IMG/VR virus record: IMGVR_UViG_3300032318_001070
Span: 1-24,592 of that record
DNA length: 24,592 nt
DNA from: a virus
Lineage: Duplodnaviria > Caudoviricetes
Direction: 5' to 3' (one strand)
Part shown: positions 3,291-9,024 of the stretch, one piece after another
Position numbering within the stretch: the stretch's first letter is position 1
How the letters are laid out: every line of letters starts with the position of its first letter
Position numbers and translations under genes: made by a program
The notes under the pieces: model-generated
Seen by the model: the letters and a program-made list of their open reading frames with translations, nothing else
The model's database searches: none
Told to the model about the DNA's origin: nothing

Positions 3291-3536
3291 ATGACTATGG
3301 AAAAAGATATTTCACAATTTAATCTCGCCGATATTGAGGCCGTTATTGAAAGCAATATCGCCTACGACGCTTTCATAATCGCGCAAGATACGCATCCCGA
3401 CAATGTAACGCTCGACCTATTGGGCGCGGCTTACGCCTTAGACGGCGACGATTTACACGACGAGGAATTGCTCGCGTTAATGCAGGAAATTCTATCTATG
3501 CGCATTAATTGGAAAGCGAGGTACGAGGAAAAATAA
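3291..3536 (+). CDS. Hypothetical acidic early protein
   Basis: 81 aa, AAGG upstream, tightly packed in the operon. Confidence 0.75.
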   Translation: MTMEKDISQFNLADIEAVIESNIAYDAFIIAQDTHPDNVTLDLLGAAYALDGDDLHDEELLALMQEILSMRINWKARYEEK

Positions 3537-3538
3537 AA

Positions 3539-3591
3539 GGCCGAAACACCCGTAAGGGTGTCGCAGCGTTACGCGCTGCCTGACGATGGCC
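3539..3591 (+). ncRNA. Hammerhead ribozyme, type II (predicted cleavage after C3562)
   Basis: GGCC-GAAA, stem III (ACACCC-GTAA-GGGTGT), C, stem I (GCAGCG-TTACG-CGCTGC), CTGACGA-T-GGCC. The full core is present (CUGANGA, GAAA, GUC) and the element is intergenic. Confidence 0.9.
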
Positions 3592-3621
3592 GTCAGCAAA
3601 CTACCGAAAAGGAAAAAAATA

Positions 3622-3795
3622 ATGGCTAAATGGGAAATATACGCGACCAATATCCTCAATTTAAGGCTGGCAGTGGAGGCCGAAAGTTACGAGGCCGCGC
3701 TAGCAATTTATGAAAGTGGCGAGGATATTGCCGATGATTACGAAAATATTGGAGGCGAATTTCGCCTGGACAATATTGTGGAGGTAACCGAATAA
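3622..3795 (+). CDS. Hypothetical early protein (MAKWEIY...)
   Basis: Start moved from 3586 (inside the ribozyme) to ATG 3622, which follows an AAGGA RBS. Confidence 0.75.
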   Translation: MAKWEIYATNILNLRLAVEAESYEAALAIYESGEDIADDYENIGGEFRLDNIVEVTE

Positions 3796-4205: not shown

Positions 4206-4355
4206 GTGAGCCAGGGAAAAAATACCGTTATGAAAGAAAATTGCCCGTTATGCGCTAAGAAAAAATATTTATTCTGCTACATAAAAGGCGGGCAAGATCT
4301 ACTGGCCTGCGCTGCCTGCGCCACCGAATTACTGCTTACGGGCTGGAGTAGATAA
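4206..4355 (+). CDS. Small Zn-finger-like protein (not in ORF track)
   Basis: Hand translation MSQGKNTVMKENCPLCAKKKYLFCYIKGGQDLLACAACATELLLTGWSR. GAGGGG RBS. Confidence 0.6.
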   Translation: MSQGKNTVMKENCPLCAKKKYLFCYIKGGQDLLACAACATELLLTGWSR

Positions 4356-4486
4356 TGCAAGATCTTTTATACATCGGCAGCGTATTCGCCTTCTTAATCG
4401 GTATTTCAGCCCTGGCAGGCCTGGCCTGGCTGCTGATTGAAGGCGCGTACTGGATCTATTGCAAGGCAACTAGACGCAACTATTGA
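4355..4486 (+). CDS. Small single-pass membrane protein (not in ORF track)
   Basis: MQDLLYIGSVFAFLIGISALAGLAWLLIEGAYWIYCKATRRNY. TAATG overlap and GGAG RBS. Confidence 0.65.
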   Translation: MQDLLYIGSVFAFLIGISALAGLAWLLIEGAYWIYCKATRRNY

Positions 4487-4492
4487 AGGCGT

Positions 4493-4559
4493 ACTATCTC
4501 GCAGCGCGTAAGCGCTGCGGGGTAGTCTGCAGTCAGCAGACTTTCCCCGGGGCGGGGAT
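4493..4559 (+). other. Long intergenic RNA stem-loop cluster
   Basis: ACTATCTCGCAGCGC-GTAA-GCGCTGCGGGGTAGT (15 bp, 2 G.U, GNRA loop), followed by AGTCTGC/GCAGACT and TCCCCG/CGGGGA hairpins. Confidence 0.7.
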
Positions 4560-4580: not shown

Positions 4581-5204
4581 ATGGAAACTATATTAAAGGG
4601 TGAAACCGTAACCGTAACCGCGGGAGATATATCGGATCTATTGGAGGGAGCAATTACTCACGCTCACCAAAAATTAGATCTACCTATATTGAACACGGTA
4701 CGCCTGGAGGTGGCCGGTGGCCACTTAACGGCTATAAGTACCGATAGGTATCGCTTAATCCAGGGAGAAATCGCCCGGGAGCTGGAGGGTGATCTATCGG
4801 CCTGCCTGGTACCGGTTGAAGGTATCAAGCGTATTTTATCTATCATAAAAGGTGAAAAGGTGAAGGGTGAAACCTTACCTATAACACTTAACCGCTTAGG
4901 CGATATTCTAACCGTATCGCTAGGCGGTAACGCTATCAGCGTGGATCTAATCACCGGCACTTATCCACCGGTGGAGAAATTTCTAGACTTTACTAGCGAT
5001 AGCGTGGCAGTAACTAGCGCGGCCTTTAACCCGGCCTTTTTTGCTGATTACGCAAAAATCGCAGTAAAGGGAAAAGGAAAATTTAAATCTATGCAGCCGG
5101 TGGAGATCGAATTTACCGGTGAAGGTAAGCCGATGAGGATCACAATTACCGGGGAGCGCGTATCCTGGAAAGCAGTACTTATGCCTATGAGAATAGTTAA
5201 GTAA
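4581..5204 (+). CDS. DNA polymerase III beta-clamp (DnaN)-like protein, two-domain
   Basis: LPILNTV...AISTDRYRL...GTYPPVEKFL...AFNPAFF...KAVLMPMR match beta-clamp domain 2/3 motifs (ATDGxRL, G.YPd, FN..Y, lMPmR). Only 207 aa long. Confidence 0.8.
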   Translation: METILKGETVTVTAGDISDLLEGAITHAHQKLDLPILNTVRLEVAGGHLTAISTDRYRLIQGEIARELEGDLSACLVPVEGIKRILSIIKGEKVKGETLPITLNRLGDILTVSLGGNAISVDLITGTYPPVEKFLDFTSDSVAVTSAAFNPAFFADYAKIAVKGKGKFKSMQPVEIEFTGEGKPMRITITGERVSWKAVLMPMRIVK

Positions 5205-8378: not shown

Positions 8379-8464
8379 TGAGTCTATTTATAGGGATACT
8401 GGTAGCATTGGTGGTCGTATATGCGTTATTGGTCTTGGAGGAAAAACTTAATGACGATAACTGA
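8378..8464 (+). CDS. Tiny membrane peptide (not in ORF track)
   Basis: MSLFIGILVALVVVYALLVLEEKLNDDN. AAGGGAG RBS and TAATG coupling. Confidence 0.6.
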   Translation: MSLFIGILVALVVVYALLVLEEKLNDDN

Positions 8465-8741
8465 GAAAAGAATTGAAAGCGCAAAAAGGCAAGCGGTATC
8501 TTACCGGAATTACCGGAGAGCTAGAGATCGTGCGCTAGTAAGGTTGGCAAACGCCTACCCGGAAACTTACAAGGAATTACTTGAACAGGAAAAGGTGGCA
8601 GATGTACAACTTGGTAAAAAGTGGATTGATATTGACGGTAGTACTATCCCTGCTATGGATACTCGCACCTACAGTTCAATCACCGGATCACTTACCGGTG
8701 GTAGCGCAGATGTCGCAGAGGGAGAGGGCGACAGCAAGTGA
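8451..8741 (+). CDS. Hypothetical protein with an Arg-rich helical N-terminus
   Basis: ATG 8451 follows GGAGG. Contains YRNYRRARDRALVRL. Confidence 0.65.
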   Translation: MTITEKRIESAKRQAVSYRNYRRARDRALVRLANAYPETYKELLEQEKVADVQLGKKWIDIDGSTIPAMDTRTYSSITGSLTGGSADVAEGEGDSK

Positions 8742-9024
8742 GAAACGAAACAACAAACGGATCGCAAGAGAATATAGTGCAGCTCTCGGCTATACGAAAA
8801 GAGAAACATATTGCCTCATCACCCTATGGACCCGTGAGAGCAGGTTTGACCACCTTGCAAGGAACCAGCAGGGATCAAGCGCTTACGGAATTGCTCAACT
8901 CCTTAGAGAGCGTAGTAGCAGCCCTGAACTCCAAGTCCTACACGGCATTAGATACATTAGCCATCGCTATTCAGGGAGCGCGTGTCGCGCTCTCAGCCAC
9001 TCCAATAGAAGAGGGTGGTACTGA
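8602..9024 (+). CDS. Secreted or membrane-anchored lytic transglycosylase (SLT, lysozyme-like fold)
   Basis: Hydrophobic N-terminus, then CLITLWTRES...A.N..SSAYGIAQ...Q..HG.RYI..RY...C.A......GWY, the motif set of actinobacterial SLT domains. Confidence 0.88.
   Translation: MYNLVKSGLILTVVLSLLWILAPTVQSPDHLPVVAQMSQRERATASEKRNNKRIAREYSAALGYTKRETYCLITLWTRESRFDHLARNQQGSSAYGIAQLLRERSSSPELQVLHGIRYISHRYSGSACRALSHSNRRGWY

Follow-up and report, generated by a model that had tools for sequence, protein, structure and literature searches.

A type II hammerhead motif with a tail complementary to its own core between two small genes of a phage

The intergenic element and its setting

Terminase, tail-like, primase, helicase, WhiB and exonuclease genes lie on the minus strand of the window, i.e. 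the whole stretch of 24,592 nucleotides analysed here, a virus record with an estimated completeness of 61%. The plus strand carries, from 3045 to about 9030, a block of small and mostly unknown ORFs together with a clamp-like gene. Because of the WhiB gene and of the terminase, which shares 42% identity with terminases of Streptomyces phages, the host was probably an actinobacterium. An earlier reading made from the letters of the DNA (the sequence-only reading) had called the plus-strand block an early operon, a designation which may be apt and has the gene layout as its basis; a promoter-like site is found upstream of the block at 2961-2990, with a count not above chance (3 vs 5.1). Between the terminase and the block, a non-coding stretch (2745-2950) holds many short CCTGGA and GAATT-C-rich near-repeats and is possibly an origin, packaging or terminal region, and at the end of the block a transglycosylase-like ORF (8581-9024, plus strand) overlaps another ORF of 106 aa (8421-9024 region).

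Within this block an ORF of 81 aa (3291-3536, plus strand; stop codon TAA at 3534-36) is followed by an acidic ORF of 57 aa (3622-3795, plus strand), both without a PHROG family and the latter without a relative among the viral contigs searched. A Shine-Dalgarno-like AAGGA (3609-3613, plus strand) stands 8 nt ahead of the ATG at 3622. The slot between the stop codon and this ribosome-binding site (RBS) is occupied by a complete hammerhead core, all of it on the plus strand, and every coordinate given for it in the sequence-only reading was correct. Stem II, supported by sequence and folding, joins GGCC at 3539-3542 to GGCC at 3588-3591 and begins, as claimed, 2 nt after the stop codon. Its 5' strand leads into the core bases G12 A13 A14 A15.1 (GAAA, 3543-3546) and these into the stem III hairpin with U16.1 (3547-3561), in which CACCC (3547-51) and GGGTG (3556-60) form five base pairs below a GTAA loop, with A3546-U3561 as an additional pair. 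The GUC triplet at 3560-62 ends in C17, and from the hammerhead consensus cleavage is predicted between 3562 and 3563. There follow the stem I hairpin (3563-3579; six base pairs and a U-G), which would form the 5' end of the downstream product and contains U1.7 at 3569, a base able to form a U-G pair within stem I in folding, and the core stretch CUGACGA (3580-3586; N7 is C3584). Next to it U3587 is inserted between A9 and G10.1, a base that had been overlooked, and the core is hence the consensus plus one nucleotide. Finally, a tail of CGUCAG (3591-3596), complementary to CTGACG at 3580-85, shares C3591 with stem II and is exclusive with that stem.

Stems I and III each have a closing loop and stem II is open, both in folding and by descriptor, which is the type II topology, and the class consensus of CUGANGA, GAAA and UH round a three-way junction is present with one extra U after A9. 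The assignment of 3539-3591 (plus strand) to type II was borne out by dinucleotide shuffling, where an equally good motif arose in 0 of 3000 sequences and a loose one in 20 of 3000; one hammerhead was found in the window when both strands were searched with the descriptor. Comparison with Rfam, proposed earlier as a check, gave a divided result: Hammerhead_II (RF02276) matches 3539-3598 with 25 bits (E = 0.003 in a 201-nt search, 8.4e-5 across the genome) and stays under its gathering score of 37, and the match appeared in narrow scans only, the all-family scan of the whole window reporting no hammerhead. An exact 24-nt search of viral contigs gave 0 matches. Judged by its motif, the element is likely to cleave itself at 3562/3563.

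Hammerheads between phage genes have been known since 2011. Type II hammerheads of bacteria and prophages were described with a pseudoknot between loop I and the 3' tail and in clusters flanking prophage genes; cleavage of polycistronic prophage RNAs containing hammerheads was seen in vitro and in E. coli, and regulated cleavage was guessed at (Perreault et al., 2011; PMC3088659). The window element shares with that type (RF02276) the open stem II, the closed stems I and III, the consensus core, the intergenic position in a phage and the proposed processing of a polycistron. It differs from the consensus of Perreault et al. (2011) in a tail that pairs with the catalytic core rather than with loop I, and in the 4-bp stem II, the A before stem II, U1.7 and the extra U. 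One inserted base between A9 and G10.1 is also present in the plus-strand hammerhead of CChMVd, where a U inserted after A9 is tolerated and the rate goes up 3-4-fold (PMC3705267); that hammerhead, however, belongs to a viroid RNA, has another topology and serves replication. The U seven bases after the cleavage site and the A directly 5' of the stem II strand preceding GAAA recall the Hoogsteen contact between U1.7 and an adenine of loop II (O'Rourke et al., via PMC11875169), although a section heading in PMC11875169 calls U7 not essential in that paper's own system. Unlike that contact, the one in the window is predicted from conservation and has to do without loop II; the A at 3538 (plus strand), predicted partner of U1.7 and stand-in for the last A of loop II, comes from the open 5' flank, often from a stop codon. 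In general, what hammerheads do in the genomes of phages and bacteria has been described as open (PMC6155905, PMC6765202).

Related hammerheads in other phages and covariation of the tail

Eighty terminase-related loci were compared, 47 of them with at least 1.7 kb upstream. Eight of the 47 (7 distinct sequences) have a type II hammerhead on the opposite strand, 1.15-2.3 kb from the terminase start and each between different small genes, and 39 are without a consensus hammerhead by the descriptor used. A first pattern with free tail and fixed U1.7, scanned against 10 of the 64 parts of the collection, gave 126 loci; together with the terminase loci and the window these yielded 151 hammerheads, reduced to 148 by removal of two with short stems and one duplicate. 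The second pattern fixed UCAG and placed no constraint on N7 and its partner, on position 1.7 or on the base preceding stem II. From its 132 raw matches the stem filter removed five and let 116 distinct ones through, 84 of which were new and served as held-out set. The stored stretches were estimated at about 800 for the first pattern and about 320 for the second.

An A directly before stem II, a position fixed by neither pattern, is present in 144 of the 148 copies and in all 84 held-out ones, and U1.7 likewise in 84/84 held-out copies, where the position had been left free; a tertiary contact between U1.7 and A3538 is predicted from this conservation. An insertion after A9 occurs in 32 of 148 copies and is a U in 31 of these. 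Since the extra U creates an AUG at 3586-88, a start codon was considered and dismissed: it is in frame here, but a long frame was found in 7 of the 31 insertion copies vs 16 and 9 in the other frames, which amounts to chance. A pseudoknot between loop I and tail was rejected for the window copy, where 2 bp are possible against a criterion of at least 4 bp; among the 148 copies, 4 bp or more are possible in 44, vs 21% with shuffled tails. The window motif is a member of a widespread subgroup in phages that lacks the published pseudoknot; this subgroup, with hundreds of copies, is missed by the Rfam model. Several contigs have at least three copies between successive genes among the matches listed.

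The competing hairpin of CGTCAG with CTGACG, which had been described as exclusive with the active fold, proved real and is kept by covariation between core and tail. Where the tail follows stem II immediately (the adjacent class, n = 40), N7 and its tail partner are C-G in 31, U-A in nine and otherwise combined in none (p 4e-9), whereas outside this class C7 mostly goes with A (37/47). The held-out copies (n = 84) gave 30 C-G, 52 U-A and two U-G pairs with no mismatch over seven stem II sequences (p 9e-21). Clustering at 70% similarity gave 30 clusters, and 11 of these contain both pair types; because the two types recur inside these 11 and over seven stem II sequences, the pairing does not go back to one inherited change, as far as recurrence can be judged from similarity clusters rather than from a tree. 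In an alignment of the window with 45 of the 116 copies (n = 46), all four helices are 100% paired, a percentage partly built in by the UCAG-fixing pattern and the stem filter by which rows were chosen, with the N7 pair left free. Two-sided changes were present in each of the four helices, the one of core and tail included; within the stems they affect all six pairs of stem I, the two middle ones of the four of stem II and four of the five of stem III.

A second tail solution, in which stem II ends in GUC and is followed by AG, is found in 39 of 43 such copies vs 23 of 57 after other stems, and a fold covering the core can form in 96 of 148 copies vs 19% with shuffled tails. Neither tail form is present in 69 of the 148 copies, from which it follows that the tail is dispensable. 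U-G pairs and loops of 3-5 nt speak for pairing in RNA rather than for a DNA palindrome. Judged from covariation, the pairing of core and tail is under selection. A helix that takes apart the core of its own ribozyme and is under selection would make this an element with a second, programmed fold and would offer a handle to separate processing, protection and regulation. Neither a core-blocking tail nor abutment of a stop codon was found for phage hammerheads in the literature searched, from which subscription journals were largely absent; the available part of PMC13481778 yielded nothing on a core-blocking tail, and four tail strings are absent from the supplementary files of PMC3088659, which has little weight for gapped alignments.

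In the Streptomyces phages Satis, Kradal, Quantum and EhyElimayoE the element has matches at 80%. Two hammerheads missing from the annotation of Satis (L336; 11691, 12002) combine a GGCC stem II with the extra U and a GUCAG tail. One lies between genes 249 and 248, 9 nt downstream of the first base of the stop codon, the other between 248 and 247 at a distance of 8 nt; in MH576962.1 the motifs start at 146,838 and 146,527 on the minus strand. Satis is a cultured phage that grows on S. lividans, and the design is therefore testable in infection. A scan of genome contigs including L336 detected 28 hammerheads in 18 of 129 loci, mostly of another subgroup, and its three adjacent-tail copies, all C-G, are too few for replication. 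Pseudoknot-like copies with longer stem I are separate from the subgroup treated here and come mostly from Streptomyces genome loci; such contigs (L231-L233, L237-L243) display arrays of 6-10 or more type II hammerheads with longer stem I and a pseudoknot-like GCAGCC tail, and a GUCAG/UCAG or GUCGG motif that might base-pair with the core follows farther downstream in many of them.

Folding, predicted products and the role of the tail

Folded with ViennaRNA, 3539-3591 forms the three-way junction (z -3.7), and addition of 3592-96 turns the minimum-energy fold into three tandem hairpins. When both folds were enforced in the window copy, the tail hairpin was favoured over the active fold by 1.4 kcal/mol. 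The same holds for the precursors of 38 of 40 adjacent copies (class mean 2.3 kcal/mol) and of 24 of 39 copies of the overlap class (class mean 0.4 kcal/mol), with energy differences between hairpin and stem II ranging from -5.6 to +1.0 between copies. Stem II has a probability of 0.97-0.99 for 3' ends at 3591-3594 and of 0.03 at 3596; it amounts to 0.14 in a short context and to 0.001 in 3500-3640, values from models without Mg2+ and tertiary energy, both of which favour the active fold. The predicted mean probability of a paired core is 1.00 in the 3' product of the adjacent class (n = 40) and 0.92 in that of the overlap class (n = 39), compared with 0.85 and 0.68 in the precursors. Since the inactive hairpin is predicted to prevail even before cleavage, the tail would not act solely after cleavage, and by these models it is clearly more than a post-cleavage element. 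A tail serving as RBS switch or RBS guard was rejected, predicted accessibility being unchanged with core pairing forbidden (p 0.16-0.58).

The reading we favour, with about even confidence, is that a type II hammerhead without pseudoknot cuts the message shared by two phage genes at 3562/3563 and that the tail then locks the product. The region would be transcribed as a single message, in which stem II, aided by the contact of U1.7 with A3538 and by Mg2+, would exchange with the tail hairpin, the active fold being a minority or stabilised by tertiary structure and cleavage being slowed, not abolished. After the cut only 4 bp would join the two pieces, and the tail would displace them, blocking re-ligation. 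The upstream piece would then have the stem III hairpin and a cyclic phosphate at its end, in agreement with a predicted 5' product that ends one base past stem III. The downstream piece would begin with a 5'-OH and two stacked hairpins and keep its RBS free; that the 3' product begins with two hairpins had been proposed before and agrees with prediction for the window copy, where the two adjacent hairpins start from the first base with zero unpaired 5' bases. The outcome would be a host-independent processing into separately stabilised messages, similar to that at an RNase III site. The glmS ribozyme offers a parallel, in which a bacterial mRNA likewise cleaves itself and leaves a downstream piece with 5'-OH, but it is triggered by a ligand and destabilises the mRNA through RNase J1 (PMC3997798). 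No ligand site is evident in the window, and the product would begin base-paired; the glmS case indicates that in the presence of active RNase J a 5'-OH end alone gives no protection (PMC3997798). The covariation of core and tail, the more fully paired core of the 3' product, the polycistron processing seen with prophage hammerheads and a fixed genomic slot with changing flanking genes, as in the 8 of 47 terminase-related loci, argue for the lock; the 69 copies with neither tail form, the 39 related loci without a consensus hammerhead and the inactive hairpin which nearest-neighbour folding already favours before cleavage argue against it.

Another reading gives the tail the selected role of a brake or timer. 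Less of the precursor would then be in the active fold, cleavage would come late or stay incomplete, and uncut and cut messages would be present side by side. The tail hairpin is predicted to be stronger than stem II in most precursors of both classes by no more than a few kcal/mol, and its strength differs among copies, as this reading would have it; yet weaker cores or stems would be a simpler way of slowing, the copies keep the A/U1.7 pair and the U insertion, the latter raising rates 3-4-fold in another hammerhead (PMC3705267), and the energies ignore tertiary folding. As the main role of the tail we consider such a brake unlikely, while lock and brake are compatible and can both hold. Far less probable is a kinetic switch with cleavage solely between the synthesis of 3591 and that of 3596, which had been suggested earlier and has so far gone unsupported. 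The steep loss of stem II beyond 3594 fits it, but the interval of 4-5 nt would be transcribed in less than a second at ordinary elongation speed, set against cleavage half-times of seconds, and would be too short for typical cleavage unless the polymerase pauses. Published rates of hammerhead cleavage range from 1 to >100 per min (PMC6155905). Hardly more credible is a spacer without catalysis, whose three hairpins insulate the RBS or bind a protein, or whose inverted repeat acts as DNA. Three hairpins are indeed the predicted minimum and the Rfam score is under the cut-off, but the compensatory changes of stem II, and the A before stem II and U1.7 kept in 84/84 copies though free in the pattern, matter in the catalytic fold only, and no terminator-like site was found at the element.

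A coupling to translation had also been suggested for the competing helix. During termination a ribosome shields some 9-13 nt beyond the stop codon, which here would be the GGCC of the 5' strand of stem II together with GAAA; with these masked, the core would be trapped by the tail, and the cut would be made only if the upstream gene is untranslated. The position of the stop codons invites this reading, as in 123 of the 146 copies with sufficient flank an ORF of 40 aa or more has a stop codon that starts 1-9 nt ahead of stem II, vs 0-13 in other 9-nt windows, and 64 of 82 held-out copies show the same; ATG-led ORFs start a median of 25 nt after stem II in 134 of 148 copies. Moreover, the two folds are close in energy, and the RNA at 4484-4541 described below likewise combines a stop triplet in its 5' strand with a competing 3' hairpin. 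Stop proximity, however, is equal with a clear tail (67/79) and without (49/59; p 0.82) and leaves the coupling unsupported so far. Genome compactness, together with the A required ahead of stem II, which the stop codon can supply (TA|G overlap; 49 of 146 copies at -2), accounts for the spacing without regulation, blocking of 3500-3548 let the anti-core probability drop from 0.995 to 0.52 instead of rising, and a hairpin of 6 bp should re-equilibrate after the ribosome has departed. We therefore consider the gate improbable, and the same doubt attaches to its wider form, a natural self-cleaving switch of phages in which cleavage reports upstream translation and whose logic is reused by the interchangeable RNA at 4484-4541, itself maybe a cutter. 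If this were true, the cutter would have the upstream stop codon as part of its edge and would be held inactive by the covarying tail during termination.

A second structured RNA in the same gene block

A conserved RNA at 4484-4541 (plus strand) occupies the same kind of slot. Its long irregular stem (GCG-U-ACUAUC ... GGURGU-CUGC) has a 5' strand starting with a stop triplet, which is paired at the stem base, and a competing GUCUGC/GCAGAC hairpin (4525-4541) can be formed by a GCAGA tail with the 3' strand of the stem; an RBS and the clamp-like gene follow. The hairpin at 4500-4519 resembles stem I of the hammerhead, a likeness that led to this separate element and not to a second hammerhead. 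A pattern scan returned 79 loci with 67 distinct matches, 51 of which have the conserved GCG; among these 51, both the tail and the stop triplet at the same place are present in 49. The genes on either side differ from copy to copy. Two-sided changes occur in 11 of 21 pairs (41 aligned copies), and no Rfam match was obtained in 15 loci. Candidate roles for the RNA are processing by RNase III, a promoter function (TACTAT) and self-cleavage as a new ribozyme. In L510 an RNA of this type precedes a homologue of the gene that follows a hammerhead in L003 and L042. The succession of stop, structure, competing 3' hairpin and RBS is shared by two unrelated elements, which fits both the protective-hairpin and the switch readings.

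Further along the block, a protein of 207 aa (4581-5204, plus strand) matches PHROGs for DNA polymerase processivity factor and RusA-like families. An unlisted hydrophobic ORF of 43 aa (4355-4486, plus strand) ends at the RNA, and similar small membrane peptides precede RNAs of this type in many relatives.
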